Below are positions 1,397-14,918 of a stretch of 15,145 bases of DNA, one piece after another. The stretch lies in the IMG/VR virus record IMGVR_UViG_2617270941_000006; one strand, given 5' to 3'. Position 1 is the first letter of the stretch, and every line of letters starts with the position of its first letter. The notes below the pieces were generated by a model. The model was not told where the DNA came from, did not search any database, and saw nothing but the letters and a program-made list of their open reading frames with translations. Both the position numbers and the translations under genes were made by a program. Source of the stretch: a virus (Duplodnaviria; Heunggongvirae; Uroviricota; Caudoviricetes).

Positions 1397-1446
1397 TTAG
1401 AAACCGATCACATACAGCTGCATTTATTAAGGTTATCATCCGTTTC
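1397..1446 (+). promoter_or_regulatory. Putative cyaR promoter: imperfect CRP half-site pair (TCACA at about 1408-1412, centred near -42) and a -10-like TATCAT at about 1434-1439
   Basis: Sequence ttagaaaccgatcacat upstream of the cyaR 5' end; the TCACA half-site is good and the upstream half is degenerate. CyaR is known to be cAMP-CRP activated with a class II type site. Positions are read by eye. Confidence 0.4.
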
Positions 1447-1533
1447 GCTGAAAAACATAACCCATAAAATGCTAGCTGTACCAGGAACCACCTCCTTAGC
1501 CTGTGTAATCTCCCTTACACGGGCTTATTTTTT
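1447..1533 (+). ncRNA. cyaR: CyaR (RyeE) Hfq-dependent small RNA
   Basis: The stretch gctgaaaaacataacccataaaatgctagctgtaccaggaaccacctccttagcctgtgtaatctcccttacacgggcttatttttt matches my recollection of E. coli CyaR. It ends in a stem-loop (cctgtgtaa / ttacacggg) followed by a U-run, and sits between yegQ and P2-derived genes as in E. coli K-12. Confidence 0.8.
1507..1533. other. P2-type attachment-site core (prophage/host junction), coinciding with the 3' terminator of cyaR
   Basis: aatctcccttacacgggcttatttttt is the reverse complement of the 27-nt P2 att core as I recall it (AAAAAATAAGCCCGTGTAAGGGAGATT). It lies about 100 nt from the ogr stop, the distance expected between ogr and attP in P2. 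The core sequence is from memory and not verified. Confidence 0.55.
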
Positions 1534-1635: not shown

Positions 1636-2043
1636 TTACATCCACATAATTTGCTGCCCTGACGGCAACGGGTGCGGCCTTACGGCGTGGACTTCTCCCG
1701 GCTTCACGATGTATCTCTGTACCGACTCATAGGTGATGAACGTGGCGCTGCAATTCACGTTCTGACACTGGTGATAACGCTCTTTTGTCGTGTCAGTGAT
1801 ATAGCGGCTTGTACGCGCATGTGCGGCATGCTGGCATACCGTGAGTGCACTGGTTTCGGGTTCATATTCAATCACCGCCCCGTCAGGGAAACGGATATGC
1901 AGGGCATCCTCCGACGCAGACGGCGCGGGGTTATCACCGGAATAAATCCCCGGCAGAACGAACGCCGTGTCGAGTTCACCGCCCACGGCCAGAATCAGCA
2001 CCTGCTCCCCCAGCCGGTCTTCAAAACGCTTAAACTCATTCAT
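1636..2043 (-). CDS. ogr: In-frame fusion ORF: N-terminal 69 aa of tail-completion protein S joined to Ogr residues 7-72 (late-gene activator lacking its first 6 residues including Cys4)
   Basis: ORF track 1636..2043 (135 aa). The C-terminal 66 aa (CQHAAHARTSRYITDTTKERYHQCQNVNCSATFITYESVQRYIVKPGEVHAVRPHPLPSGQQIMWM) match P2 Ogr from residue 7 on. The N-terminal MNEFKRFEDRL... starts 2 nt past the R stop, where gene S starts in P2. Junction at about 1836/1837. Confidence 0.7.
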   Translation of the reverse strand: MNEFKRFEDRLGEQVLILAVGGELDTAFVLPGIYSGDNPAPSASEDALHIRFPDGAVIEYEPETSALTVCQHAAHARTSRYITDTTKERYHQCQNVNCSATFITYESVQRYIVKPGEVHAVRPHPLPSGQQIMWM

Positions 2044-2503
2044 CCCACTTGCTCACCAGTTCGCCATTGATATAAAGCTCCATCGGGCGGGTGACCGGCT
2101 CCGGCGGCGGGGGTTCCGGGATATTCTTCACATGCAGCGCGCCGTCCACCTCACTGACCAGCGTGCGCTCGGTCAGCATCAGGCTGATGCTGATATCAAA
2201 GCTGCTGTCATTGTTGATGTCTGCATAAAACGTGAAGCCCTTTTTCTGGCCTGCGTCGGTGGTCATGATGTCGGGCTGATTCTCCCGCAGCCACGCCAGC
2301 ACCGGCACGATGAGCAGGTCAAAATCACCGGTAAAGTCGGTCACAATGACATTGAGCGTGTAACGCTTTTCGAATGACAGCGACGTCGCCAGTGTGGAGG
2401 CAATACTCCCGTTATCCACGAATATCCGCAGCATATCGGGGTTAGTTTTCAGTACCGTGACGGCATCAGTCAGCGCCCTGCGCAGGCTGTCGGGTTTGAG
2501 CAT
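2036..2503 (-). CDS. R: P2 gpR-like tail completion protein R (155 aa)
   Basis: ORF track 2036..2503. The protein MLKPDSLRRALTDAVTVLKTNPDMLRIFVDNGS... matches my recollection of P2 gpR, with the same length and position between lysB and S. Confidence 0.85.
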   Translation of the reverse strand: MLKPDSLRRALTDAVTVLKTNPDMLRIFVDNGSIASTLATSLSFEKRYTLNVIVTDFTGDFDLLIVPVLAWLRENQPDIMTTDAGQKKGFTFYADINNDSSFDISISLMLTERTLVSEVDGALHVKNIPEPPPPEPVTRPMELYINGELVSKWDE

Positions 2504-2756
2504 CGTTTTCGTCCTGACAGTGTTTAATCATTTTTACCTGGCTGGCACAGCGCGCCAGCGCGTTCTCAAGCTGCCGGATATCGGCACTTAAATCGCCGTT
2601 CGTCTGCGGGTCACTGCCCGGCATCGGGCAAAGGCTCACTTTCGGGCAGGCGTTGTGGACAATCACTGGCGTCGGTGCAGGCGGGGCGCTGGTGCAACCG
2701 GCGCACAGCATCAGGCAGGTCAGCGCCGTACCAGCGGCGAAAATCTTCGTTTTCAT
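2466..2756 (-). CDS. lysC: LysC-like o-spanin lipoprotein (Rz1 equivalent), embedded out of frame in lysB
   Basis: Internal Met at residue 40 of ORF 2466..2873 gives MKTKIFAAGTALTCLMLCAGCTS..., a signal peptide with lipobox (LCAGC) followed by a Pro-rich segment. It is nested in the +1 frame of the i-spanin gene, the typical Rz/Rz1 arrangement. 96 aa. Confidence 0.7.
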   Translation of the reverse strand: MKTKIFAAGTALTCLMLCAGCTSAPPAPTPVIVHNACPKVSLCPMPGSDPQTNGDLSADIRQLENALARCASQVKMIKHCQDENDAQTRQPAQGAD

Positions 2757-3036
2757 TGAGTAACCTCGTGATGGTTTTCTCGCGCTGTGCTTCACGCTTC
2801 GCGGCGTTCTCCAGTTCCTGACGCAGTGCCACCTGCGCCAGCTCGTTTTTGTCTGCCCTGGTGAGTGCAACATGAAGCTGGTTTTTCAGCATGGTGATGG
2901 TCGTCTGCTGCCCGCTGGCGACGTTGCTCGCCCTGTCCAGTGAGGTGCGCAGGCTGGCGTTTTCATGCTTCGCCAGAAACAGACCGGCCACCGCCAGTGA
3001 TAACAACACAACCAGCACAATCATCAGCTTTGACAT
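2611..3036 (-). CDS. lysB: LysB-like i-spanin (Rz equivalent), 141 aa
   Basis: ORF track 2611..3036. N-terminal transmembrane segment (MSKLMIVLVVLLSLAVAGLFLA) followed by a charged coiled-coil-like region. Length and position match P2 LysB. Confidence 0.85.
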   Translation of the reverse strand: MSKLMIVLVVLLSLAVAGLFLAKHENASLRTSLDRASNVASGQQTTITMLKNQLHVALTRADKNELAQVALRQELENAAKREAQREKTITRLLNENEDFRRWYGADLPDAVRRLHQRPACTDASDCPQRLPESEPLPDAGQ

Positions 3037-3449
3037 GGTTCCCGCACCTCAAAACGCTGACGGCAGGCCGTACGTATCAGCCGGAAGAACACCGATACCA
3101 CGAGATAAATCAGCGCGGTAAAAATCCACCCGGCAGCGACCAGCGAGATAAACGTCGCCACCATCACTACCAGAGCCACCGCCCGTCTGCGCCACGGCAC
3201 CGGCTGCAAAAACAGCGACGTGACAATCTTCACGGCCAGCGATTCCGGCGGCAGCTCCCGCCCGTAGCGTTCCAGTACATACTCTGTGGCATACACGCCG
3301 ACACCGCCGGCAACCACACAGATAACCGTCGCCAGAATCGCCCAGGCGGCGACAAAATTGACGGCCACGCTCTGCGGGTAAATCAGGGACAGTGCCAGCA
3401 TCAGCGCCAGCGACACGTTCAGCATCAGTGAAAGGGATAATTTCTTCAT
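3024..3449 (-). CDS. lysA: LysA-like membrane protein (lysis timing / holin-associated), 141 aa
   Basis: Starts at the internal ATG at residue 35 of ORF 3024..3551 (MKKLSLSLMLNVSLALMLALSLIYPQ...). The protein is highly hydrophobic with multiple transmembrane segments, and this start gives the P2 LysA length of 141 aa. The 3551 TTG start is treated as an artefactual extension. Confidence 0.75.
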   Translation of the reverse strand: MKKLSLSLMLNVSLALMLALSLIYPQSVAVNFVAAWAILATVICVVAGGVGVYATEYVLERYGRELPPESLAVKIVTSLFLQPVPWRRRAVALVVMVATFISLVAAGWIFTALIYLVVSVFFRLIRTACRQRFEVREPCQS

Positions 3450-3465
3450 GGTGTTTACTCCGTTT

Positions 3466-3561
3466 TGCGGCGAACACGGTCTCAACCACGCCCTCAGTGC
3501 GCCCGTAATACCGGACACAGATAGCGTCGAGCGTGTCGCCCTGTAGCGCAAAGGTCTTCAT
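3466..3561 (-). pseudogene. X: Truncated gpX (tail protein X) stub: first about 32 codons only, reading through out of frame into lysA
   Basis: ORF 3049..3630 contains MKTFALQGDTLDAICVRYYGRTEGVVETVFAA, matching the N-terminus of P2 gpX, starting at an ATG that overlaps the L stop (tcat at about 3558-3561). After about 32 residues the frame continues into lysA sequence in the wrong frame. The genes expected between X and lysA (Y holin, K endolysin) are absent. Confidence 0.6.
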
Positions 3562-4070
3562 CAGATTTGACTCACGATGCAGCGCGGCTTGTCCTGGATG
3601 CGCGCCACTGCCCAGCGCATATCCCGCCACAGCTCATCAATGGTGCTGTCAATGCTGTCGGCCTTCTTGTCGCCTTTCGCACTGGCATCCACGCCGCGAT
3701 AACGCTCATAAAGCGATGCGGTCGCCATCGCACACACGGCGCGCTCGTAGTAAAAAACTTTGATGCTTTCACCGTCGATGTCGTCCGCCGGGACGTCCGC
3801 CAGACGCGTAAAACCGGCAGCAATTTTCTGTTTGCGGTACTCGTACAGCTCCGCATTCGTCTCCGCCATGCCTGACTTGATGGCCTCACGCAGACGGGCG
3901 GGGGCGACGGTCTGCTCAAGGCGCATACGTTCCCGGACGCGCTTCGGGTCGATATCGGGAAAAAAGAACGTGTTTTTAATCACCGGCTCGTCGCCTGCCG
4001 GTTGCGGGATGACCACCGTACCCTCACCGGACACGGGAGCCTCCTTTCGCGGAATAATCAGCGTCATCAT
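3561..4070 (-). CDS. L: P2 gpL-like head completion/stabilisation protein (169 aa)
   Basis: Starts at Met 21 of ORF 3561..4130 (MMTLIIPRKEAPVSGEGTVVIPQPAGDEPVIKNTFFFPDIDPKRV...), which matches P2 gpL. There is a GAGG Shine-Dalgarno about 5 nt upstream and the length is 169 aa. Confidence 0.85.
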   Translation of the reverse strand: MMTLIIPRKEAPVSGEGTVVIPQPAGDEPVIKNTFFFPDIDPKRVRERMRLEQTVAPARLREAIKSGMAETNAELYEYRKQKIAAGFTRLADVPADDIDGESIKVFYYERAVCAMATASLYERYRGVDASAKGDKKADSIDSTIDELWRDMRWAVARIQDKPRCIVSQI

Positions 4071-4169
4071 GACTACCTCTGAAAAGTCGGGCGGTGGACG
4101 CCGGTACAGCGTCAGGTGATTCACCCTCACTGACCGGCGTGCCGCCCTGGCGCGGGGCGCATTCGGTTG

Positions 4170-4913
4170 TTAACTGGCTTTCTTTTTCGGGCGTCCACGT
4201 TTTGCCGGTGTCACGCTCCGGCTCTTACGCGGGGTACGGGTGGCCGCTTTGGGCTGCGGCTCCGGCTTCGGTTTCAGCTCCCGCTCCAGTCGTTCAATCT
4301 CTTTTTTGACACCTGCCTGACAGTCGAGCTGTGTCGCACGTTGCAGGTGAGCCAGCGCACCGGCGGCATCACCACCATCACGCAGAAACAGACCTGTGAT
4401 TTTGTGCAGCTTTGCGCGCACTTCATCAGGCATGTCAGCCGTGGCGGTCAGTTCAAGGGTCTCCGTCAGCAGGCGGGTATCCACAGACTCACCGGCAGCG
4501 TGAGCACGCATGGCCGCGAGCGCCACCTCCTCGGTGAACATGTACGGCGGGGTGCGGCGGTGTTTACCCGGCATGGTCAGACCGTACTTCAGGGCATAAC
4601 GGGCAATCTCCAGCGCACCGGCAATATCGCCGGTATCCAGACGCCACAGCATGACCGTCATCAGAATGTCATCCTGTGCACCTTTGCCCTGCTCCAGCAC
4701 GCCGTTCACCCACGGCAACCAGAACGGCAGCAGTTCGCGTTTTTTCGCGGCCTTCAGCTCTTTTGAATAAATCGCTTTCAGTGTGCGCTGGTCTGCGGCG
4801 AGCTTAACCAGCATCTGCTCATAGACAGTTGCATGTCGCAGCGGGGCGGCTTCCCGCTGCGCGGTCATCGCTGCCGAGACCCGCATCATGTGGCGCTGTG
4901 CGGGACTCGTCAT
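4170..4913 (-). CDS. M: P2 gpM-like terminase small (endonuclease) subunit, 247 aa
   Basis: ORF track 4170..4913. The sequence MTSPAQRHMMRVSAAMTAQREAAPLRHATVYEQMLVKLAADQRTLKAIYS... matches recalled P2 gpM, with a basic Lys/Arg/Pro-rich C-terminal tail. Length 247 aa as in P2. Confidence 0.9.
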   Translation of the reverse strand: MTSPAQRHMMRVSAAMTAQREAAPLRHATVYEQMLVKLAADQRTLKAIYSKELKAAKKRELLPFWLPWVNGVLEQGKGAQDDILMTVMLWRLDTGDIAGALEIARYALKYGLTMPGKHRRTPPYMFTEEVALAAMRAHAAGESVDTRLLTETLELTATADMPDEVRAKLHKITGLFLRDGGDAAGALAHLQRATQLDCQAGVKKEIERLERELKPKPEPQPKAATRTPRKSRSVTPAKRGRPKKKAS

Positions 4914-4916
4914 CGG

Positions 4917-5990
4917 TTACGCTCCCGGCTCTGCGGTCGCTTTAGCCAGTGTGGAGAAATCACCGACCTTAATTTTTTCCACCAGACAACCGGCGGCGTA
5001 GTCTTCCACCACGTAATCAATGTTCATTGACTCGTAGTTCTCCACGCGGTCGAGTTTCGGGTTTTCCTCAATCACGCGGCGATGGCTGTCATCCATGTAG
5101 TAGATGGACAGGTTTTCCAGCTTCGTGATGAGCATCGCATCCGCCGGGAAGTACGGGACGCGTACCGCTGGCAGGTTACCGATGCGTTTCTGGCTGATGA
5201 TGACGTCAGCGGCCAGCATTTCGCTGTTGTCCTGCTCCTTGTTAACGATGGGGAAATACTTGTCCGCCAGTAACTGACGTCCCACTATCACCACAAGGTC
5301 AGGGTCTTCCTGATACCACGGTTCGATCAGGTTGTTGGTCGCATCCATCACCAGTGCATCAAGGCTGGCATAATCACCGCCCTTACCCACACGGATGACC
5401 TCAGAGGTCGTGTGACCTTCCTCGTCAGTGACCTTGCTCATCACGCGCGCCGGTGCTTCATTGCGGTATTTCTGCAGCCAGCCGACCGCCACATCCTGCA
5501 ACATCGGATTACTGTTGCGGTCAGAGGTTTCGGCACGCTTCACGCCGTTAAAACCGGCCATGATGAAATCAAGGGACTGGCGTTTGATAATGGCGTTACG
5601 GATACGGAGCTGGAAATCCTGATAACGCGCCCACAGGTCAAGCGTTTTGTAGCGGATATAAAAATCGAAGTTAACCTGGTCGCATTCGTACTTGTTTGAC
5701 GCCAGCTTCGAGAAGTCCTTCGGCTGACGCTCGGTGCCACCGGCGGTGTCGGTGGTGCTGGCGATGGAGCCGGTGACACCGATACCAATTTTTTCCCCTT
5801 TCATTTCGCTGACCGGCACAATGTTGATGCGGGTCAGAAAGTCAGAGGACTCCTGCATGGTGTTCATCAGGGTCTGGGTGACCGACGGTTCAACGGTGAA
5901 TTTTTTCGACACATCACCGGCGTCGATGCCGTTCAGTTCGGCAACACGGGACAGGTAGGCATTAAATTTAAAGCGGGTTTCCTGGCGCAT
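4917..5990 (-). CDS. N: P2 gpN-like major capsid protein, 357 aa
   Basis: ORF track 4917..5990. MRQETRFKFNAYLSRVAELNGIDAGDVSKKFTVEPSVTQTLMNTMQESSDFLTRINIV... matches recalled P2 gpN. Length 357 aa as in P2, positioned between O and M. Confidence 0.9.
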   Translation of the reverse strand: MRQETRFKFNAYLSRVAELNGIDAGDVSKKFTVEPSVTQTLMNTMQESSDFLTRINIVPVSEMKGEKIGIGVTGSIASTTDTAGGTERQPKDFSKLASNKYECDQVNFDFYIRYKTLDLWARYQDFQLRIRNAIIKRQSLDFIMAGFNGVKRAETSDRNSNPMLQDVAVGWLQKYRNEAPARVMSKVTDEEGHTTSEVIRVGKGGDYASLDALVMDATNNLIEPWYQEDPDLVVIVGRQLLADKYFPIVNKEQDNSEMLAADVIISQKRIGNLPAVRVPYFPADAMLITKLENLSIYYMDDSHRRVIEENPKLDRVENYESMNIDYVVEDYAAGCLVEKIKVGDFSTLAKATAEPGA

Positions 5991-6048
5991 AGTTTTTCCT
6001 GAAATTAAGGGTTAATCGTGAAGGTTTTCCCGGACTGGCTGACGCCGG

Positions 6049-6903
6049 TCAGCAGTTCGTCATCAGGGCGTCACCGCCACCGCCGGTGGCCTTGCTGCGG
6101 CGCTGCTGGGTCAGACTTTCGGTGTGGTCGAGACTGTTTTTCAGGCGGGTGAATGCCTGGCTGGTTTCATCCGCCCTGTCTGTCACCTCCTGCTTAAGTG
6201 CGGAAAAGGCGGTTTCCATCTCAGCGAGGCGCTGCTCAGTGGCGCTCAGTTTTTCCTGCACATGTTCAGCAACAGCGGTCACCGCTTCATGCACGTCATT
6301 CAGACGGGCGTCATCGCTGGCCTGTTTGCGGCCAAAAATGGATTTCACCTTTTCGGTCAGGGCGGTGAACACGGTTTCAGGCAGGTCTTCAAATTCCAGC
6401 TCAACAGGCGTTGCCACTGAAATCAGGTTTTCAGGGCTTAATTTGAAGCGGTTCAGGGGGTTGTGTTTTGCCGTGCGGCAGAATTCCAGGTATTCCGTGC
6501 CGAGGCTTGCCGGGTCATCGGTGACGGCCAGACCCACCAGATAACATTTGCCGGTATTGGCAAAGTTCGGCTGAATTTCCATTGAGGTATAGACCTTCTG
6601 CGCGGCCTTGTTCATCGCGATAAGGTCATCGGTCGGGGTGATTTTCGCAAACAGCGCCCATTTGCCTTTCAGCGCCGAATCATCGTCAATCTTTTCGGCC
6701 TTCAGTTCGGCCACATCGCCATAACGCTTAAAAATACCGTCAGGCAGGATGCCGCGCAGATGTTCCAGGTTAATGCGGCAACCATAGACTCGCGGGTCAA
6801 AGGTTTCGGCCATTTCCTGAATATCCTGCGCACTGATGACACGCCCGTCACAGGTGTCACCCTCAACGCCGATACGAAAGAATTTTGAGACTTTTTTTGC
6901 CAT
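6049..6903 (-). CDS. O: P2 gpO-like capsid scaffolding protein, 284 aa
   Basis: Starts at Met 23 of ORF 6049..6969 (MAKKVSKFFRIGVEGDTCDGRVISAQDIQEMAETFDPRVYGCRINLEHLRG...), giving the P2 gpO length of 284 aa. The cat at 6901-6903 is the ATG on the minus strand. Confidence 0.9.
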   Translation of the reverse strand: MAKKVSKFFRIGVEGDTCDGRVISAQDIQEMAETFDPRVYGCRINLEHLRGILPDGIFKRYGDVAELKAEKIDDDSALKGKWALFAKITPTDDLIAMNKAAQKVYTSMEIQPNFANTGKCYLVGLAVTDDPASLGTEYLEFCRTAKHNPLNRFKLSPENLISVATPVELEFEDLPETVFTALTEKVKSIFGRKQASDDARLNDVHEAVTAVAEHVQEKLSATEQRLAEMETAFSALKQEVTDRADETSQAFTRLKNSLDHTESLTQQRRSKATGGGGDALMTNC

Positions 6904-7076
6904 TGTCAGGAGTCCTGAATAGTGATTAGAGGAGTCACATGTCGGCATCAGTTTCCCGACGATGCGCATCCTCCGCCATCAGTCCCGGATGGCTTATCAC
7001 TGACACAACAGCACCTTAGCGAATCGCGGGGCGCGACTCAGTAGCCTTGCCGTGTATTCATCACGGCGAGGTATTC
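6904..7076. promoter_or_regulatory. Divergent late-promoter region between O (leftward) and P (rightward), expected site of Ogr-dependent promoters
   Basis: A 173-nt intergenic region between divergent late operons, as in P2 where PO and PP are activated by Ogr. GAGG Shine-Dalgarno at about 7065-7068 before the P start. I could not find a perfect TGT-N12-ACA element, so exact promoter positions are not assigned. Confidence 0.4.
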
Positions 7077-8849
7077 ATGACCATCACCACAGACACCACT
7101 CTTTTACACGACCCGCGTCGTCAGGCGGCGCTGCTGTACTGGCAGGGATTTTCCGTGCCGCAGATTGCCGCCATGTTGCAGATGAAACGCCCGACGGTGC
7201 AGAGCTGGAAACAGCGCGACGGCTGGGACAGCGTTGCCCCCATCAGCCGTGTCGAAATGAGTCTGGAAGCGAGGCTGACCCAGCTCATCATCAAACCGCA
7301 GAAAACCGGCGGTGACTTCAAGGAAATTGACCTGCTCGGACGCCAGATTGAACGACTGGCACGGGTCAACCGTTACAGTCAGACCGGCAACGAGGCAGAC
7401 CTTAATCCGAACGTCGCTAACCGCAACAAGGGCGGGCGTCGCAAACCGAAAAAGAATTTTTTCAGTGACGAGGCCATCGAAAAGCTGGAGCAGATTTTCT
7501 TTGAGCAGTCTTTCGAATATCAGTTGCACTGGTATCGCGCCGGGCTTGAGCACCGCATCCGCGATATCCTGAAATCCCGCCAGATTGGCGCGACGTTTTA
7601 TTTTTCCCGCGAGGCGCTGCTGCGCGCCCTGAAAACCGGTCATAACCAGATTTTTCTGTCGGCCAGTAAAACGCAGGCGTATGTGTTCCGCGAATACATC
7701 ATCGCCTTTGCCCGGTTGGTTGACGTTGACCTGACCGGTGACCCAATTGTCCTGGGCAATAACGGCGCAAAACTGATTTTTCTCGGCACCAACTCCAACA
7801 CCGCGCAGAGCCATAACGGCGACCTGTACGTCGACGAGATTTTCTGGATCCCGAATTTTCAGGTGCTCCGTAAGGTGGCATCAGGTATGGCCTCACAGAG
7901 CCACCTGCGCTCGACCTATTTCTCCACCCCGTCCACGCTGGCGCACGACGCCTACCCGTTCTGGTCGGGTGAACTGTTCAACCGGGGACGCGCCAGCGCC
8001 GCCGAACGCGTGGAAATCGACGTCAGTCATAACGCCCTTGCCGGAGGTCTTCTCTGTGCGGACGGCCAGTGGCGGCAGATTGTCACCATTGAGGACGCCC
8101 TGAAAGGCGGCTGCACGCTGTTCGACATTGAGCAGCTCAAACGCGAAAACAGCGCCGACGATTTTAAAAACCTGTTCATGTGTGAATTTGTTGACGACAA
8201 GGCATCGGTGTTCCCGTTCGAGGAGCTGCAACGCTGCATGGTCGACACGCTGGAAGAATGGGAAGACTATGCGCCGTTTGCCGCCAATCCGTTCGGCTCC
8301 CGCCCGGTATGGATTGGTTACGACCCGTCACACCGTGGCGACAGCGCCGGATGCGTGGTGCTGGCACCGCCGGTGGTGGCCGGTGGAAAATTCAGAATAC
8401 TTGAGCGTCACCAGTGGAAAGGCATGGACTTTGCCACTCAGGCTGAATCCATCCGCAAACTCACCGAAAAATACAACGTCGAATACATCGGTATTGATGC
8501 CACCGGCCTCGGTGTCGGCGTGTTCCAGCTCGTGCGCTCGTTCTATCCCGCCGCGCGCGATATCCGCTACACACCGGAAATGAAAACTGCAATGGTGCTC
8601 AAGGCAAAAGACGTTATCCGCCGTGGCTGTCTGGAATATGACGTCAGCGCCACCGACATCACCAGCTCGTTCATGGCTATCCGCAAGACCATGACCAGCA
8701 GCGGACGCAGCGCCACGTATGAGGCCAGCCGCAGCGAGGAAGCCAGCCACGCCGACCTCGCCTGGGCGACCATGCATGCCCTGTTAAATGAGCCACTCAC
8801 CGCCGGTATCAGCACCCCGCTGACATCCACCATTCTGGAGTTTTACTGA
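7077..8849 (+). CDS. P: P2 gpP-like terminase large (ATPase) subunit, 590 aa
   Basis: Starts at Met 11 of ORF 7047..8849 (MTITTDTTLLHDPRRQAALLYWQGFSVPQIAAMLQMKRPTVQSWKQRDGWDS...), which matches recalled P2 gpP. The TTG at 7047 is treated as an extension. The stop overlaps the Q start (tgatga). Confidence 0.9.
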   Translation: MTITTDTTLLHDPRRQAALLYWQGFSVPQIAAMLQMKRPTVQSWKQRDGWDSVAPISRVEMSLEARLTQLIIKPQKTGGDFKEIDLLGRQIERLARVNRYSQTGNEADLNPNVANRNKGGRRKPKKNFFSDEAIEKLEQIFFEQSFEYQLHWYRAGLEHRIRDILKSRQIGATFYFSREALLRALKTGHNQIFLSASKTQAYVFREYIIAFARLVDVDLTGDPIVLGNNGAKLIFLGTNSNTAQSHNGDLYVDEIFWIPNFQVLRKVASGMASQSHLRSTYFSTPSTLAHDAYPFWSGELFNRGRASAAERVEIDVSHNALAGGLLCADGQWRQIVTIEDALKGGCTLFDIEQLKRENSADDFKNLFMCEFVDDKASVFPFEELQRCMVDTLEEWEDYAPFAANPFGSRPVWIGYDPSHRGDSAGCVVLAPPVVAGGKFRILERHQWKGMDFATQAESIRKLTEKYNVEYIGIDATGLGVGVFQLVRSFYPAARDIRYTPEMKTAMVLKAKDVIRRGCLEYDVSATDITSSFMAIRKTMTSSGRSATYEASRSEEASHADLAWATMHALLNEPLTAGISTPLTSTILEFY

Positions 8850-9467
8850 TGAGCAAGAAAAAAGGGAAAACACCGCAACCTGCGGCAAAAACAATCACCG
8901 CCAGCGCCCCGAAAATGGAGGCATTCACCTTTGGTGAGCCGGTGCCGGTACGGCCTGCCGGAATATCTCAGCGCCCTTAATTCTGCCTGGCTGAATGAGT
9001 CGGCCACGCTGTTCCGCCGCAAGTATTACGAAAACGGCGCTCATGCCGGATATATCATGTACGTCACCGATGCCGTGCAGGATCGCAACGATATCGAAAT
9101 GCTTCGCGAAAACATGGTCAAGTCGAAAGGCCGCAACAACTTTAAAAATCTGTTTCTCTATGCCCCGCAGGGGAAAGCCGACGGCATTAAAATTATCCCG
9201 CTCAGTGAAGTGGCAACGAAGGACGATTTTTTTAATATCAAAAAAGCCAGCGCCGCTGACCTGCTGGACGCACACCGCATCCCCTTTCAGTTGATGGGCG
9301 GCAAGCCGGAGAACGTCGGGTCACTGGGAGATATTGAGAAAGTGGCAAAGGTCTTTGTCCGCAATGAGCTTATCCCGTTACAGGACAGGATCCGCGAGAT
9401 AAACGGCTGGCTCGGTCAGGAGGTCATCCGCTTTAAAAACTACTCACTGGACACTGACAACGGCTGA
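8849..9467 (+). pseudogene. Q: Portal gene Q disrupted by an internal out-of-frame deletion (N-terminal 34 codons, then C-terminal about 172 codons in another frame)
   Basis: ATG at 8849-8851 overlapping the P stop gives MSKKKGKTPQPAAKTITASAPKMEAFTFGEPVPV, then RPAGISQRP and a stop at 8978-8980. The portal C-terminal sequence (YGLPEYLSALNSAWLNESATLFRRKYYENGAHAGYIMYV...DTDNG) is in ORF 8931..9467 in a different frame. The total span is about 206 codons against 344 aa for P2 Q. Junction near 8948-8951. Confidence 0.8.
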
Positions 9468-9472
9468 ACATC

Positions 9473-9494
9473 GCCGCCTGCGGGCGGCTTTTTT
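9473..9494 (+). terminator. Rho-independent terminator after Q
   Basis: Hairpin gccgcc-tgcg-ggcggc followed by tttttt, beginning 6 nt after the Q stop. Confidence 0.65.
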
Positions 9495-9636
9495 ACACCC
9501 CGTCATCACGCCCTCACACGCTCACCACCGCACAAAACACCCCGCAGACACACCAATGCCCCGGCTAACAATCTAAACGCCATCACGACGCGCTCAGACG
9601 CTGAAAAAATAAAATCAGCACCACCGCCAGCGCGCA

Positions 9637-9655
9637 GTGCTTTCCCCGCCTCGCC
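9637..9655. other. P2-type cos site (19-nt cohesive end sequence)
   Basis: gtgctttccccgcctcgcc is the reverse complement of the P2 cohesive end GGCGAGGCGGGGAAAGCAC as I recall it. It lies about 170 nt beyond the end of Q, as expected for the P2 genome end. Sequence from memory, not verified. Confidence 0.6.
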
Positions 9656-9772
9656 CGCCCGCTTAATGGGGCGGTTTTAATGCGGGTGCATAACCACTTC
9701 TTACCCACATCAATTCTGGTCAAGCCAAGCAGTACAGCTTATGATTTCAAGATGCAAACTCATGCAGCAATG

Positions 9773-10966
9773 TTAAATTCTGCATCCATCGGTTTGAAAA
9801 TGTGATCCGTTTTTCGAATTCAAACTCAACTCTGTTTGACTCTTTTGAACATTAATAGTTTTACCAGTAAGGACATCCAAAACCCCTGCAGCAACAGCCT
9901 GCGCCAATTTACAAGGCACAGCATTCCCTATCTGACGCCAAATTGACGAATTTTTCCCCACAAAGACATAATTACTCGGGAATGTTTGAATCAAAAGAGC
10001 CTCATCTATCGTTAGTCGACGTAAACGACTAGGTACATCGTGCATATCTTTTGGCTCACCACCATTCATTAGATGATTATGATAAGTCTCAACATAACTT
10101 GTTGAGCCATCATAAAGGTGTTCTTCATCAATAATTGGTGTCCTATTCCCTCCCATAGAAGCAGCTATAGTTGAAGCATACCCATTCGGGTTAATTGGTC
10201 TTCCCTGCCCGTTAAACATCATTCCCGCGTAAGGTGACTTCCGTAATACTGGCTTAGCAGCATTTGTAATCCTTGCATTACAGACTCTTGAATTGTTTGG
10301 ATTACCCGCTCGCCCTAAAGGCCGAATAATCTCACCAACTGTGGGCGAAAGATATTGGTATTTTTTTATCGCCGCCTCAACTCGTTTCACATCATTTTCG
10401 GAACGAAACCCTATAAAAAACATACGTTCCCTATTCTGAGGAACGCCAAAATCTTTAGAATTCAGCACCAGCAAGGCTGAACGATAGCCTGACTTTTCAG
10501 CCATCTTAAACAGTTCACACCTAACTGGTTCAAATTTGGACAACTGTGCTAAAGCCTTAACATTCTCCATAACAAAGCATTCTGGTTGAATTATATCCAC
10601 CGCCCGCATGAATGACATAACCAGCTTACTACGTGGATCATGAGCGTCCATTTTCCCTGCCACAGAAAATCCTTGGCATGGAGGCCCACCAAAAACACAA
10701 CCTATATTTTTCAGCCCAGACAATTCACTTAGCATCTCATCAATATCACCACAAAAAACAGGTGATTCATGATTAAGCTTAAATGTATCACATGCATCCT
10801 TATCTATATCATTGGCCCAAACTGTTCGGAACCCGGCATTAGAGAAACCGACATCCATCCCTCCTGCCCCAGTAAATAAGCTCACCGCTGAAATTTTGTT
10901 CACTTCTTTAGCACCAATTATTCGATTTTGGAATAAAACCAATGATAGGTAAGGATCGACACACAA
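9773..10966 (-). CDS. DNA (cytosine-5)-methyltransferase, Type II R-M modification subunit (397 aa with the TTG start)
   Basis: ORF track 9773..10966. Conserved m5C-MTase motifs in canonical order: LFTGAGGMDVGF (motif I, AdoMet binding), GGPPCQGFS (motif IV, catalytic Cys), ENV (motif VI), QNRERMFFIG (motif VIII), a variable target-recognition region, and RQIGNAVP (motif X). The TTG start has an AAGGTGA Shine-Dalgarno 4 nt upstream; GTG starts 21 or 27 codons in are alternatives. The region is AT-rich compared with the phage backbone. Confidence 0.85.
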   Translation of the reverse strand: MCVDPYLSLVLFQNRIIGAKEVNKISAVSLFTGAGGMDVGFSNAGFRTVWANDIDKDACDTFKLNHESPVFCGDIDEMLSELSGLKNIGCVFGGPPCQGFSVAGKMDAHDPRSKLVMSFMRAVDIIQPECFVMENVKALAQLSKFEPVRCELFKMAEKSGYRSALLVLNSKDFGVPQNRERMFFIGFRSENDVKRVEAAIKKYQYLSPTVGEIIRPLGRAGNPNNSRVCNARITNAAKPVLRKSPYAGMMFNGQGRPINPNGYASTIAASMGGNRTPIIDEEHLYDGSTSYVETYHNHLMNGGEPKDMHDVPSRLRRLTIDEALLIQTFPSNYVFVGKNSSIWRQIGNAVPCKLAQAVAAGVLDVLTGKTINVQKSQTELSLNSKNGSHFQTDGCRI

Positions 10967-10986
10967 TCAATCACCTTCTAAACCAC

Positions 10987-11256
10987 ATGGCAAAACGACA
11001 ACCAACTATACATGATCATAGATACAGGTGCCTAGTCCAGCTTCTCACCAAACTACGCAAAGAAGCTTCTCTTTCGCAGTCAGAATTGGCCATTTTTCTA
11101 GGATTATCACAATCAGATATATCTAAAATCGAAAGCTTTGAAAGGCGATTAGATGCTTTAGAACTATTTGAATTATTAGAGGTGGTTGCAAGCCGATTAG
11201 GTCTACCAATGGATATCTTACTAAAGGACACCTATGAAAGTATTAGTAAATCATGA
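10987..11256 (+). CDS. XRE-family helix-turn-helix regulator, putative R-M controller (C) protein, 89 aa (104 aa if it starts at the ATG at 10942)
   Basis: Internal Met 16 of ORF 10942..11256. HTH segment LRKEASLSQSELAIFLGLSQSDISKIESFERRLDALELFELLEVVASRLGLPMD follows the pattern of R-M controller proteins. It is divergent from the methyltransferase and its 3' end overlaps the start of the downstream ORF by 23 nt (C-R operon architecture). Start codon choice is uncertain. Confidence 0.65.
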   Translation: MAKRQPTIHDHRYRCLVQLLTKLRKEASLSQSELAIFLGLSQSDISKIESFERRLDALELFELLEVVASRLGLPMDILLKDTYESISKS

Positions 11257-12289
11257 GCAAGCCTATAATGTAATTATAAATGCAATCAACGATGCAAAAA
11301 AATTAACTGATTACAAAACAAATAATCAATGGGTCTCCATTCAAAATGTAATTTTAGGCACCCACCTTACATACAGATATATACTTATTACTGGTTTACT
11401 TGCAAAAGCAACAGACCCTAGAGTAAACCCTCTTGCTTTACAAGCTAATGCCCCCGTAGACGGAGCCTATGATGCAAGAAGTTTATGTCATTCGGTAATA
11501 GTAGGCAAAGTAGAAGGCCCATTTTTAGAGGGTAAGTTAGGCGCATCAAATGAGCCATTTCTAAATAAACCTGCTCGTTACATGCTCCACTCCTCTGATA
11601 ACCCTGTGCGCAGAGGAAATGATAAGGTTTTACAACAACTTTCAATTGATATATTACATGCAGCAACAACCCAAACCTTAGCTTATGAAATGCTTGTTAT
11701 TGCATTATATTTTACCCTACAGCGAACCAATAGAGTTATAACGCCGAACTCAATTAATTTTGATTTCCATAAGATTATTTATAATATTATATCTCATCCT
11801 TGTGATGGAGAAACATGCGCGATTGCTGCCGCAATTTCGTTACATTTATTAGGTGAACAAAGAGGATGGATAATAAAAGCACATCCCGTCAATCAGGCCG
11901 GTAGCTCCTCAAAAGAGATACTGGACATAGATGTATATCATGACGATATAGTTTTCCTTTCTATAGAAGTGAAAGACAAACCATTTAATTATCAAGATGT
12001 TAATCACGCCGTTTCAAAAGCATCTGCATCCGGGATTTCAAAAGTTATCTTCCTTAAAGGGCCAAGAGCAACAAACTTAGATATTGATGAGTCTCTTGCG
12101 ATTGAGAACGCTGCGACAAAAGGTGTTTCACTAAGCTTTAGTGACGTCATGACATTCACAACAACATGTTATGCGTTATCGCCACTATTAAGTAATGACA
12201 GAATAATAGATTTCATAAATAACACTTTAAAAGACATCAGAGCTAAAGATAGCACTATAGAATACATACAATCCATATTTAAAAATTAA
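11234..12289 (+). CDS. Putative Type II restriction endonuclease (351 aa), family unassigned
   Basis: ORF track 11234..12289. ATG preceded by AAAGGA Shine-Dalgarno at 11223-11228, translationally coupled to the HTH gene. Candidate PD-(D/E)xK-like motif around residues 231-247 (LDIDVYHDDIVFLSIEVK, about nt 11924-11974). Function is inferred from genomic context with the m5C-MTase and controller; the ORF itself is solid, the product call is tentative. Confidence 0.55.
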   Translation: MKVLVNHEQAYNVIINAINDAKKLTDYKTNNQWVSIQNVILGTHLTYRYILITGLLAKATDPRVNPLALQANAPVDGAYDARSLCHSVIVGKVEGPFLEGKLGASNEPFLNKPARYMLHSSDNPVRRGNDKVLQQLSIDILHAATTQTLAYEMLVIALYFTLQRTNRVITPNSINFDFHKIIYNIISHPCDGETCAIAAAISLHLLGEQRGWIIKAHPVNQAGSSSKEILDIDVYHDDIVFLSIEVKDKPFNYQDVNHAVSKASASGISKVIFLKGPRATNLDIDESLAIENAATKGVSLSFSDVMTFTTTCYALSPLLSNDRIIDFINNTLKDIRAKDSTIEYIQSIFKN

Positions 12290-12296
12290 TACTCCC

Positions 12297-12331
12297 GGGA
12301 CAATATAGTTCACAACTACGTTGTCCCTTTT
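12297..12331 (+). terminator. Putative rho-independent terminator after the endonuclease gene, in the convergent gap with gene A
   Basis: Inverted repeat gggacaa ... ttgtccc (17-nt loop) followed by tttt, 8 nt after the stop at 12287-12289. The stem is short and the loop long, so this is a weak call. Confidence 0.35.
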
Positions 12332-12382
12332 AAAACAGTCAAGCAATTGCATTATATTAATTATTTACTTTTTATCACAATC

Positions 12383-14653
12383 TCATAATTCATACGCTCT
12401 CCAATCACATATAACAGGATAACTGAAGCTTCTCCCGTCGTAATTTACAGTTGCCCCACGCGCCAGCGCCTCAAGCTCCCATCGCTGCGGCCTGATACCG
12501 TTCTGAGCAAGGTCAACGCGGATACGGGTGATTTGCAATCGTTCAGACCTGGTCAGTCTGGCCGATGGTGCTATTTCATGCGGTTTTAACGGGCTTCCGT
12601 TTCTTTGCTGACGGTTTGGTGTTATCAGGTCGTGTTTTAATGCGCCCCTGAGCGCCCTCACGACCTCCGGGTCATTCCATTCGATAACACCGTCATCAAC
12701 CAGATTAAGCACTGCTGCGGCGTGTTCAGAAGGTGTGGGAGCCGGTAACGAAGTATCACCACTGGTGAGCTTTCCACAGTTATTGACAGGACTCCGAGGC
12801 GCGGCGATGCCGCTTTTTAAAGTCAAAGGCTCAACGACCGGAACTTTCGGCACAATGCGCCAGTCCGTCGTTCTGGTGATATGAATATGACGCGCGCCGA
12901 GATGCGGCGCGTAAATGCCGACCACTCTCTCGACTTCTTCCTCGTACTCGTTAACGTCATCCGACGGGCTACGGGCGACCCTGACAGTCTGACAATCGCG
13001 CGGGACATTTGCCCCGCCCTGCGCGCTGATATACAACGCAAAATCACCACTGTCTGCGGCGGCGCGTGCAGCCTCGACGCGTTCGTCAAACTCATCAGCA
13101 ATGCTGACGCCGCGAGGCAATTTGCGTAGCTCACGGTAAGCCCCCATTGTCGGCAGGCCAACCGTTTTAAATTGCGGAATGCGCCACGTTGACGCCCATG
13201 CGGTAACAGCCGCGGCAGTATCTTTCAGCGGCCTGCCAGTATCGTTATCGAGCTGACCATCCAGTGCATAGCCGTCGATGTTTTTTGAAATGTATTTCGC
13301 GATATATCCCGCAGCACCGCCCCGGTTAAGGTGTTTTGCCTGAAAACGGTTTCGCGCAGCTCCTCTTTCGTCTCCATCCTCTTTGAGCGCGTAGCGACGC
13401 ATGATTTCGATAATCTGGTTACGCTGGCGTGGATTACAAAAAAGCATCATATGCCAGTGCGGCGTTCCGTCGTGGTGTGGCTCGACGACACGCAAACCGT
13501 AGACCTGTAAATCATTATCCTTGAATGCCGTGCGCATCAGGCTCCAGATATGGCAGAGATAACGCTGCGCATCCTTTGGATTAAATGCCTCATCATTCCA
13601 GCCGTGATTTAGCTGGACGGTTTTACTTTCGCCTTTTCCGACCTGACGTGTCGGGTGATACTTTGACGGCGCGGTCAGCGTGATAAACATCCCCACATCA
13701 CCCTCTGCGGCGGCATAACGCTCAATTCCGGCGATGGTGTTCATCAGCTCCATCCGGCGAATTTCAGGATTAGAAATACTGCCCATCACCTTACTGATAA
13801 GGTCGATGCGCTCGCCGGTTTCCCTGTTTTCAAGGTCACACGATTTAAGAAATTCCAGATTTGCCTGGCGGCGTGCACGCACATCACGAATGGCATGTTT
13901 ACTGGCATAAGGAGAACGGTCTTTATTGACCTCCCCGACAGCAATCAGTAACGCCTCATGCCAGCGCATACGCTGGCCTTTAAGCTGATGAGTCCACCAC
14001 TCATCGTTAAACAGACGGGCAATGGCAGAATATGCCTGCCTCGTAGTTATCTGTCCTTTACGGTATTTTTTCCAGTAGAGCGGGGAAATATTGAAAGCAC
14101 GTGCAGCGCCAGCAACATGACCATACAGGTGAGTCTGCGCCTCATCCGTAAACAGCGATTCTTTTTCGCCATGTGCATCAACCCATGCATCGCAGAGTTC
14201 CTCATACATCATGAAAAGCTGCGATGAGATACGGGCGGCAAACTTTTTCAGCTCCTTGTCATTCATCCCCGGCAGGCGCGCATAGTGGTCACGCTCTGCC
14301 AGAAACAGTAACGACTCGTCGGTGTTCATTTCATGGCGCTGATTCACGCGCTCAATGCGCGGCCATAAACGACGCTGAAAAGTGGATGTGAGGAAATAAA
14401 ACCCGTGCACCGGGCTTTTATTGCGCCGGATGTAGTCATAGCGTGAAGTAAACAGCGAGCGCAAAAAGTAAGGCAGGCGGTTAATCGTGGATAAAACACC
14501 TTGCACCTGACGCATCTCGTCACGTGTAAGGGGTCTTTCGCGCCCGACAGCCTCGCGTGGCGCGTTCCATGCATAAGCACCGGTAAACGCCTTACCGGTG
14601 CCTGCGGCAAATGCTGACGGAGGGACAAAACGCCCGGAGGCTTTAACGGCCAT
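12383..14653 (-). CDS. A: P2 gpA-like rolling-circle replication initiator (HUH endonuclease), 756 aa
   Basis: Starts at Met 15 of ORF 12383..14695 (MAVKASGRFVPPSAFAAGTGK...), the P2 gpA N-terminus as I recall it. HUH metal-binding motif (GTPHWHMMLF) and active-site tyrosine motif (GYIAKYISKN). The upstream gene stops at 14643, consistent with this start. The extreme C-terminus is AT-rich and may be chimeric. Confidence 0.9.
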   Translation of the reverse strand: MAVKASGRFVPPSAFAAGTGKAFTGAYAWNAPREAVGRERPLTRDEMRQVQGVLSTINRLPYFLRSLFTSRYDYIRRNKSPVHGFYFLTSTFQRRLWPRIERVNQRHEMNTDESLLFLAERDHYARLPGMNDKELKKFAARISSQLFMMYEELCDAWVDAHGEKESLFTDEAQTHLYGHVAGAARAFNISPLYWKKYRKGQITTRQAYSAIARLFNDEWWTHQLKGQRMRWHEALLIAVGEVNKDRSPYASKHAIRDVRARRQANLEFLKSCDLENRETGERIDLISKVMGSISNPEIRRMELMNTIAGIERYAAAEGDVGMFITLTAPSKYHPTRQVGKGESKTVQLNHGWNDEAFNPKDAQRYLCHIWSLMRTAFKDNDLQVYGLRVVEPHHDGTPHWHMMLFCNPRQRNQIIEIMRRYALKEDGDERGAARNRFQAKHLNRGGAAGYIAKYISKNIDGYALDGQLDNDTGRPLKDTAAAVTAWASTWRIPQFKTVGLPTMGAYRELRKLPRGVSIADEFDERVEAARAAADSGDFALYISAQGGANVPRDCQTVRVARSPSDDVNEYEEEVERVVGIYAPHLGARHIHITRTTDWRIVPKVPVVEPLTLKSGIAAPRSPVNNCGKLTSGDTSLPAPTPSEHAAAVLNLVDDGVIEWNDPEVVRALRGALKHDLITPNRQQRNGSPLKPHEIAPSARLTRSERLQITRIRVDLAQNGIRPQRWELEALARGATVNYDGRSFSYPVICDWRAYEL

Positions 14654-14918
14654 ATGAGCCAAAAGCCTCTGAACAACGCTTGCTGAGTTGCTCAACCTGC
14701 GCGTTTAAATCAGCAAAAGACTTTGCGCTTCCGGTCAGAATATCGTGATGCATCAGGCCGGAAACGAGCTGGCTTAATTTCGGGTAATAACCAACCACCG
14801 CCAGCCATTCCTGACCGGCGTTTTTACCGCTTTCCGCTCTCTTTTTCTCGTGGAGAATAAACTGAAAGCTGTCACTGGTAACGACATAACGTTCGCCAAT
14901 TTCGATACGAATACTCAT
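14643..14918 (-). CDS. P2 early-operon small protein immediately upstream of A (orf83-position homologue), 91 aa, function unknown
   Basis: ORF track 14643..14918. The ATG overlaps the stop of the upstream zinc-finger ORF (tcat at 14915-14918). It sits where the P2 early operon has small ORFs between B and A. The name is by position only. Confidence 0.55.
   Translation of the reverse strand: MSIRIEIGERYVVTSDSFQFILHEKKRAESGKNAGQEWLAVVGYYPKLSQLVSGLMHHDILTGSAKSFADLNAQVEQLSKRCSEAFGSYGR

Follow-up and report, generated by a model that had tools for sequence, protein, structure and literature searches.

The DNA investigated here, virus record IMGVR_UViG_2617270941_000006 of IMG/VR (15,145 nucleotides, the whole of which is called the window in the following), originates from Escherichia coli and contains a defective P2 prophage, as revealed by a tblastn map of the P2 proteins and by the identity of the cos sequence. 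Between its genes A and Q the prophage carries a cassette of three genes for a methyltransferase (M), a small helix-turn-helix (HTH) protein (C) and a restriction endonuclease (R), and the assignment of this cassette to the Type II restriction-modification (R-M) system EcoT38I is the subject of this work. The left bound of the cargo slot is the 19-nt cohesive-end sequence of P2 at 9637–9655, an exact reverse complement of cosL/cosR (GGCGAGGCGGGGAAAGCAC) as annotated in NC_001895. The right bound is the P2 replication gene A at 12383–14653 on the minus strand, placed by tblastn with gpA. Open reading frames (ORFs) were called at 9773–10966 (minus, M), 10942–11256 (plus, HTH protein), 11234–12289 (plus, 351 amino acids (aa)) and 12383–14695 (minus, gpA). 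A preliminary description of the same DNA had placed cos and the three ORFs at about these positions and had pointed out that in P2 itself the slot between cos and gene A is occupied by orf91, tin and old; both statements hold, the second according to the annotation of NC_001895. It had also put the G+C content of the cassette at roughly one third. The contrast to the phage backbone is real, but the figure was slightly low, as 38.4% was determined for the 2.7 kb of the cassette (9700–12382) compared to 56.8% for the backbone (1834–9636) and 52.5% from gpA onwards. For the individual genes the values are 41.6% (M), 37.0% (C) and 35.4% (R).

The starts of M and C given in that description had to be corrected. 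Translation of M begins at GTG 10903, resulting in 376 aa; the codon is ATG in several homologs, is preceded by GGTG and is also the start of the UniRef entry Q83VT0, while the Prokaryotic Genome Annotation Pipeline (PGAP) uses the upstream TTG 10966. The C gene begins at ATG 10987 and encodes 89 instead of 104 aa. This ATG is kept in nine of ten aligned loci, with the most distant one, from Psychrobacter, unaligned at this position, and the stretch upstream of it is rich in indels and variable in length, which is incompatible with coding and therefore supports the shorter protein. With these starts M and R are oriented head to head with 330 nt between them (10903 to 11234), and the C and R genes share 23 nt.

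Identity of the cassette follows from several matches. The endonuclease (11234–12289, plus strand) agrees in 351 of 351 positions with the chains of PDB 7E8R/7EDB, deposited under the name 'EcoT38I restriction endonuclease'. The HTH protein agrees over residues 6–89 (84/84, 100%) with PDB 2EF8, a 'putative transcription factor' of E. coli that we take to be C.EcoT38I, and M read from GTG 10903 shares 363 of 363 aa with UniRef Q83VT0, assigned to the taxon Peduovirus P2. The 330 nt between M and R equal the length of 330 bp that PMC9346568 gives for the R-M intergenic region with reference to Kita 2003. Rare codons of R-M genes from E. coli have been tabulated in the literature; for EcoT38I an AUA at codon 15 of R and GGG at codons 12 and 15 of M are given, and the cassette in the window matches all three positions. 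Furthermore, C.EcoT38I is found among the REBASE C proteins with a predicted binding site (Sorokin 2008). Taken together, protein identities, gap length, rare codons and REBASE listing identify the cassette as the known EcoT38I system. With a probability of about 95% the low-G+C cassette is the EcoT38I Type II R-M system, located in the A–Q slot of a defective P2 prophage that is inserted at yegQ-cyaR. The earlier suggestion of a Type II R-M system under C-protein control, taken up as cargo into the slot next to cos, is thereby borne out, and the system receives its name.

The cassette as such is already known: it was published in 2003, R and C were crystallised, and the arrangement was listed in 2022, so that its detection here is a rediscovery. 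The title of the publication by Kita, Kawakami and Tanaka 2003 (J Bacteriol 185:2296; PMC151499, PMID 12644501) already places EcoT38I in defective P2 prophages, which were reportedly those of E. coli TH38. A literature search by the PDB codes of the R and C structures returned no biological description of them.

M (ecoT38IM, 9773–10903, minus strand) is a full-length C5 cytosine methyltransferase with matches to PF00145 (1.4e-66, 225.6 bits at a cut-off of 22), TIGR00675 (6.6e-59, 200 bits at a cut-off of 100.65) and the PADLOC model MTase_II. The sequences FTGAGG, GGPPCQGFS, ENV, QNRERMFF and GNAVP in its translation correspond to the motifs FxGxG, PCQ, ENV, QxRxR and GNAVP, and confirm the earlier assignment as a C5 methyltransferase with canonical motifs. 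Codon 364 (9812–9814, minus strand) is AAA in the window and a stop in the 363-aa allele, which results in 13 additional residues (KNGSHFQTDGCRI). Both the 363-aa and the extended allele are common among public E. coli assemblies. In E. coli FORC_082, PGAP splits M into two coding sequences beside an intact R. One base is missing there in a CCC(T/C)CCC run equivalent to window 10148–10154, and the portal gene of that prophage is likewise annotated as frameshifted. FORC_082 was considered as a natural case of R without M; judged from the one-base gap in the C run and the frameshifted portal gene, a homopolymer miscall or assembly error is more likely.

The endonuclease (ecoT38IR) belongs to the SacI family. 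It matches PF09566 (RE_SacI) with 1.9e-76 and 258 bits at a cut-off of 19.3, residues 4–277 covering profile positions 4–276 of 276, it matches one PADLOC REase_II model end to end with 834 bits, and PGAP names it 'restriction endonuclease, SacI family'. Homologs reach 74% identity in Enterobacter ludwigii and about 40% outside Enterobacterales. Across 16 homologs D231, D233, E245 and K247 are invariant within the segment LDIDVY...SIEVKDK, which resembles a PD-(D/E)XK catalytic motif and may represent one.

The controller gene (ecoT38IC, 10987–11256, plus strand) encodes an Xre-type HTH protein with a match to HTH_3 (1.8e-6), a weak match to the PADLOC model Control_protein (2e-4) and weak similarity to C.BclI (E 0.015) and C.AhdI (E 0.046). 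It is small, lies directly upstream of R in the same orientation, and the layout M / C / R is kept in ten loci. Alignment of these loci divides the region between the M and C starts (10904–10986, inside the 330-nt gap) into two conserved blocks followed by the stretch of variable length. At 10918–10936 a 19-bp palindrome is found, TTATTC-GATTTTG-GAATAA, with 6-bp arms and a 7-nt spacer, which is the sole perfect copy within the window. The spacer and the inner bases of the arms are invariant in all ten loci, down to an endonuclease identity of 40%. The arms co-vary: ATATTC/GAATAT occurs in Yersinia, Ewingella and Serratia and ATATGC/GCATAT in Pseudoalteromonas, with a half-step intermediate in Psychrobacter. 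A conserved palindrome with compensatory changes in its arms resembles the site expected for a dimeric HTH protein, and we propose it as the candidate operator of C.EcoT38I. Its sequence, TTATTC-N7-GAATAA, is presumably unlike the known C-boxes. Searching the window for a second copy gave none nearby within two mismatches and otherwise matches at chance level only. The PvuII-type double C-box consists of two tandem palindromes with GTG between them and 35 bp in all; here a single palindrome is present. An inverted repeat TCGAT...ATCGA, seen by eye, is not conserved among the homologous loci and was dismissed.

The putative promoters lie close to and within this palindrome. Its spacer holds a −10-like CAAAAT on the M strand (10930 to 10925), roughly 15 nt ahead of the start of M, and the palindrome includes a −35-like TTGGAA on the C/R strand. 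The second conserved block, GGTAAnnAT, could supply the −35 element for M and the −10 element for C/R. Two divergent promoters, leftward for M and rightward for C/R, would then overlap fully, and C would be bound across both. C reportedly activates R and represses M, and binding across overlapping promoters fits the repression of M. We assume GRGCY^C as the recognition site of EcoT38I, and M.EcoT38I presumably methylates the inner cytosine of this site. The following mechanism can be proposed: C5 methylation by M.EcoT38I would protect the DNA of the host, and R.EcoT38I, as a member of the SacI family, would cut unmodified incoming DNA. C.EcoT38I, a small dimeric HTH protein whose gene directly precedes that of R and partly overlaps with it, would bind the conserved palindrome, and its occupancy would switch between the overlapping divergent promoters. 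By activation of R and repression of M, restriction would be delayed after entry into a new host.

Several points weigh against the assignment and the mechanism derived from it. Target site, position of methylation and the action of C on M and R are presumed in the form given above. Activity of the system in this particular strain is presumed from the sequence of the genes, and the M allele of the window bears the 13-residue C-terminal extension, which could alter the enzyme. The promoter assignments are consensus matches, and the best minus-strand promoter obtained in the scan, TTGATT-17-TATCAT, was rejected as the sequence around it is not conserved from locus to locus. Finally, a lone operator copy, unlike the double box of the PvuII type, would leave the route of C/R activation hard to explain.

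The state of the surrounding prophage was derived by placing the P2 proteins on the window with tblastn, supplemented by an Rfam scan. From left to right, yegQ (1–1362) is followed by the gene of the small RNA CyaR (1445–1530), ogr residues 6–72 fused to V residues 63–121, the P2 genes R, lysB and lysA, X residues 1–33, then L, M, N, O and P, the portal gene Q without residues 35–165, cos, the cassette, A residues 1–754, orf83 and orf82. Compared to P2 the remnant shows at least four separate deletions (window 1639–3561 and 8849–9467). The first joins ogr to V residue 121 with loss of all tail genes from W to D (junction near 1837–1839), the second removes S between V and P2 R (2013–2039), the third X residues 34–67 together with holin Y and endolysin K (3449–3463), and the fourth the portal residues 35–165 within 8849–9467. 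At the latter position, across cos from the cargo slot, tblastn with gpQ aligns residues 1–34 and 166–343 on the plus strand as a broken gene with split ORFs. The preliminary description regarded the cassette as the only part without decay, which is not the case. Of the P2 genes, P, O, N, M, L, R, lysA and lysB are preserved over their full length with 95–100% identity to P2 (98–100% for L, M, N, O and P), orf82 and orf83 are intact, gpA aligns over residues 1–754 of 761 with 97% identity (14653 to 12392), and all surviving genes are 93–100% identical to P2. Decay consists of discrete deletions, and the majority of the remaining genes are intact.

A GC-rich hairpin with a T-run at 9655–9674 (plus strand), between cos and the 3′ end of M, was suggested as a putative terminator by a consensus scan. 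The CyaR/RyeE gene is of full length (1445–1530, plus strand; Rfam RF00112, 100.7 bits), and a dip in G+C at 1351–1650 corresponds to this region. Since it is located between yegQ and the ogr end, the prophage abuts the 3′ side of cyaR, which we take to be a known attachment site of the P2 family. The EcoT38I prophage is said to reside at the P2 attachment site locI.

Among 5,426 complete E. coli genomes PGAP annotates the three genes in 20, with at least 99.6% identity and in each case beside the P2 replication endonuclease. In a large protein collection the exact R protein occurs on 986 contigs, and near-identical copies exist in Salmonella. In the phage collection no record with the cassette was found, and matches there are confined to its cos and gpA flanks. 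The region between gpA and gpQ of P2 was described as a hotspot of anti-phage systems (Rousset et al. 2022), and the cassette has the corresponding position, being variable cargo between gpA and gpQ beside cos. Table S5A of that study contains rows 'HTH + RE_SacI + DNA_methylase', including WP_134874246, the accession under which the endonuclease is annotated in genome CP062865. For NZ_NTIH01000052, NZ_NTIP01000012 and NZ_NTIQ01000013 the same table lists HTH + RE_SacI without a methylase; M is probably a pseudogene or unannotated in these cases, or the locus is interrupted (compare IS66 in CP062865).

In E. coli Res13-Lact-PEB08-01 (16127–19868) the P2 prophage carrying the cassette is otherwise nearly complete and is found next to pflA, a site different from that in the window; ISCro1, an insertion sequence of the IS66 family, splits its portal gene just beside the cassette. 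In CP062876, CP146507, AP027697 and CP075640, four E. coli chromosomes labelled 'complete', the match begins with the first base of the record and ends at window position 14653, the start codon of gene A. It seems that the origin of these assemblies was set to the replication gene of the prophage and not to dnaA, presumably the work of an automated start-fixing tool.

More distant relatives of the three genes in the order M / C / R occupy the P2-like Q–A slot as well, namely a 79% variant and copies of Serratia fonticola (57%), Ewingella (58%) and a metagenome contig (63%). In Yersinia aldovae (4316–7349, 60% endonuclease identity) the genes are found at the opposite end of the prophage, flanked by an att-like sequence and ogr, which means that the M / C / R unit occupies two different slots in genomes of the P2 family. 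The copies in Psychrobacter and Pseudoalteromonas lack a P2 context altogether. A Pseudescherichia sp. (GCA_032004355.1, 3573–7722) possesses intact M, C and R genes beside yegQ-cyaR with 65% endonuclease identity. Only scraps of P2 are present at this locus, comprising Q residues 305–342, a 63-bp match to the cos region and gpA residues 548–627, and the cassette has therefore outlived its prophage there.

All three genes are under strong purifying selection. The ratio of nonsynonymous to synonymous substitution rates (dN/dS) amounts to 0.04–0.17 in every computable pair, and to 0.05–0.10 between the Pseudescherichia remnant copy and a copy in the P2 Q–A slot. These values support a long-term retention of the cassette, and they do not separate defence from addiction. 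The proposal made from the sequence alone, that selection keeps the cassette as a defence or addiction module, gains plausibility from these ratios and from the Pseudescherichia locus, short of proof.

An alternative to a function chiefly in phage defence is that the cassette is mainly a selfish addiction module: after loss of the genes, unmethylated sites would be cut by residual endonuclease and the cell would die, by which the cassette would stabilise itself and the surrounding DNA. Post-segregational killing of this kind is established for several Type II systems by the Kobayashi laboratory. In accordance with it, the cassette of Pseudescherichia survived its prophage under continued purifying selection, and the window itself represents a multiply deleted prophage with an intact cassette. 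On the other hand, a benefit for the host by defence predicts equal retention, and the survival of the cassette is not exceptional because other P2 genes in the remnant are intact too. To our knowledge no test of post-segregational killing has been made for EcoT38I. We thus consider a mainly selfish role, and the stabilisation of the surrounding DNA that it implies, as possible but somewhat doubtful, with the remark that defence and addiction are not mutually exclusive.

It is very unlikely that the cassette is an inactive relic in this strain, be it that R is silent or that M is impaired, for which the 13-residue extension is a conceivable cause. Its host element is a decaying prophage and its M allele lost the stop codon, FORC_082 is annotated with a split M beside an intact R, and three rows of Table S5A lack the methylase. 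Against this stand the identity of R and C to the crystallised proteins and of M over the whole 363-aa allele. The extended allele is also included in a 397-aa PGAP call that is found in other complete genomes and on 183 contigs, and the apparent frameshift of FORC_082 has the character of a miscalled homopolymer. Cells with an intact R would not survive the loss of M function.

A further aspect of the EcoT38I assignment is the scarcity of its presumed target in P2 genomes. GRGCYC is present once in the window, in yegQ, compared to 14.0 ± 3.6 expected from shuffled sequences, and is absent from the P2 reference with 14.5 expected by a third-order Markov model. A non-carrier P2-like phage (0 vs 14.9) and the backbone of a carrier prophage (0 vs 10.5) are equally free of it, whereas adjacent host DNA contains nearly the expected number (4 vs 4.9). 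Avoidance restricted to carrier prophages can therefore be ruled out, since the site is missing from non-carrier P2 phages as well. Of the non-palindromic members GAGCCC/GGGCTC 7.8 are expected in P2 and none occurs, and among 356 comparable hexamer classes only four are absent. The overlapping pattern GWGCWC is not depleted in P2 (20 vs 24.3). RGGNCCY, which we take to be the site of EcoO109I, occurs once compared to 10.4 expected, and GGNCC eight times compared to 72. P2 avoids many palindromes, and the avoidance of GRGCYC is part of a broad, known phenomenon.

Absence of GRGCYC from the P2 backbone implies that a phage carrying EcoT38I cannot be cut by this enzyme. The lack of GRGCYC together with the undiminished GWGCWC would fit a specificity of the BanII type acting on the P2 family. 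That genomes of this family were purged specifically of the sites of R-M systems residing in the cos-proximal hotspots of P2 and P4, with GRGCYC and RGGNCCY as examples, is a tentative idea which we regard as rather improbable. With respect to the specificity of R itself, a reading of GAGCTC alone, as by a SacI iso- or neoschizomer of the EcoICRI, Eco53kI or Ecl136II type, might be suspected from the strong RE_SacI match, the family name given by PGAP and the 74%-identical homolog in Enterobacter ludwigii, but it is hardly credible, since R is identical to the chain deposited as EcoT38I with the presumed site GRGCY^C and since P2 backbones lack GGGCCC and GAGCCC/GGGCTC in addition to GAGCTC, which a degenerate site explains better. 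The count of GAGCTC in the window (1 vs 2.8 expected) was uninformative in this regard, and the PDB match was decisive; a literature search on enzymes of the EcoICRI, Eco53kI and Ecl136II type yielded routine cloning uses only.

The cassette, as EcoT38I, can be compared to known systems. With EcoT38I of E. coli TH38 it shares the three protein sequences (R 351/351, C 84/84, M 363/363), the gap of 330 nt between M and R and the A–Q slot of a defective P2 prophage. It differs in the M allele, which reads 13 codons beyond the usual stop, and the TH38 prophages may have a different set of deletions. SacI belongs to the same endonuclease family (PF09566) and has a 5-methylcytosine (m5C) methyltransferase of the same type as its partner, but reads GAGCTC only. 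In SacI (GAGCT^C) and in the BanII/Eco24I group (GRGCY^C) cleavage presumably takes place at the same position as in EcoT38I and produces 3′ overhangs of 4 nt. Features in common with EcoRV and Esp1396I are an M gene transcribed divergently from a C–R operon, a small HTH controller that precedes R or overlaps with it, and the position of the candidate operator between these divergent units; in contrast to systems of that type, the candidate operator TTATTC-N7-GAATAA has neither a second box nor the GTG spacer. By its architecture the candidate falls among the single-palindrome operators, a class that Sorokin et al. gave to the EcoRV and EcoO109I types. EcoO109I of P4-like satellites (Kita et al. 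1999, Rousset et al. 2022) is also a C-controlled Type II R-M system with an m5C methyltransferase and cos-adjacent location, whereas its endonuclease belongs to the unrelated RE_EcoO109I family, recognises another site and is carried by a satellite instead of the helper phage. Old and tin of P2 itself (Odegrip 2006; Rousset 2022) occupy the same slot, follow the same logic of low-G+C cargo and presumably exclude other phages, but are abortive-infection or exclusion proteins in contrast to the classical R-M system found here.

The cassette is a textbook case of a defence system that is carried by a temperate phage and outlives it. To the known system the present analysis adds the corrected gene starts, a conserved operator candidate with compensatory changes, the absence of GRGCYC from P2 backbones, purifying selection on the three genes and the Pseudescherichia locus in which the cassette outlived the prophage. 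The first three of these results could be of interest for studies on the regulation of R-M systems or on the arms race between phages and their hosts. If the purging of sites from P2-family genomes were true, the cargo would have been a long-standing selective force on the backbone of the helper phage, and any relative of P2 could harbour or encounter EcoT38I and stay uncut, with restriction falling on unrelated phages.

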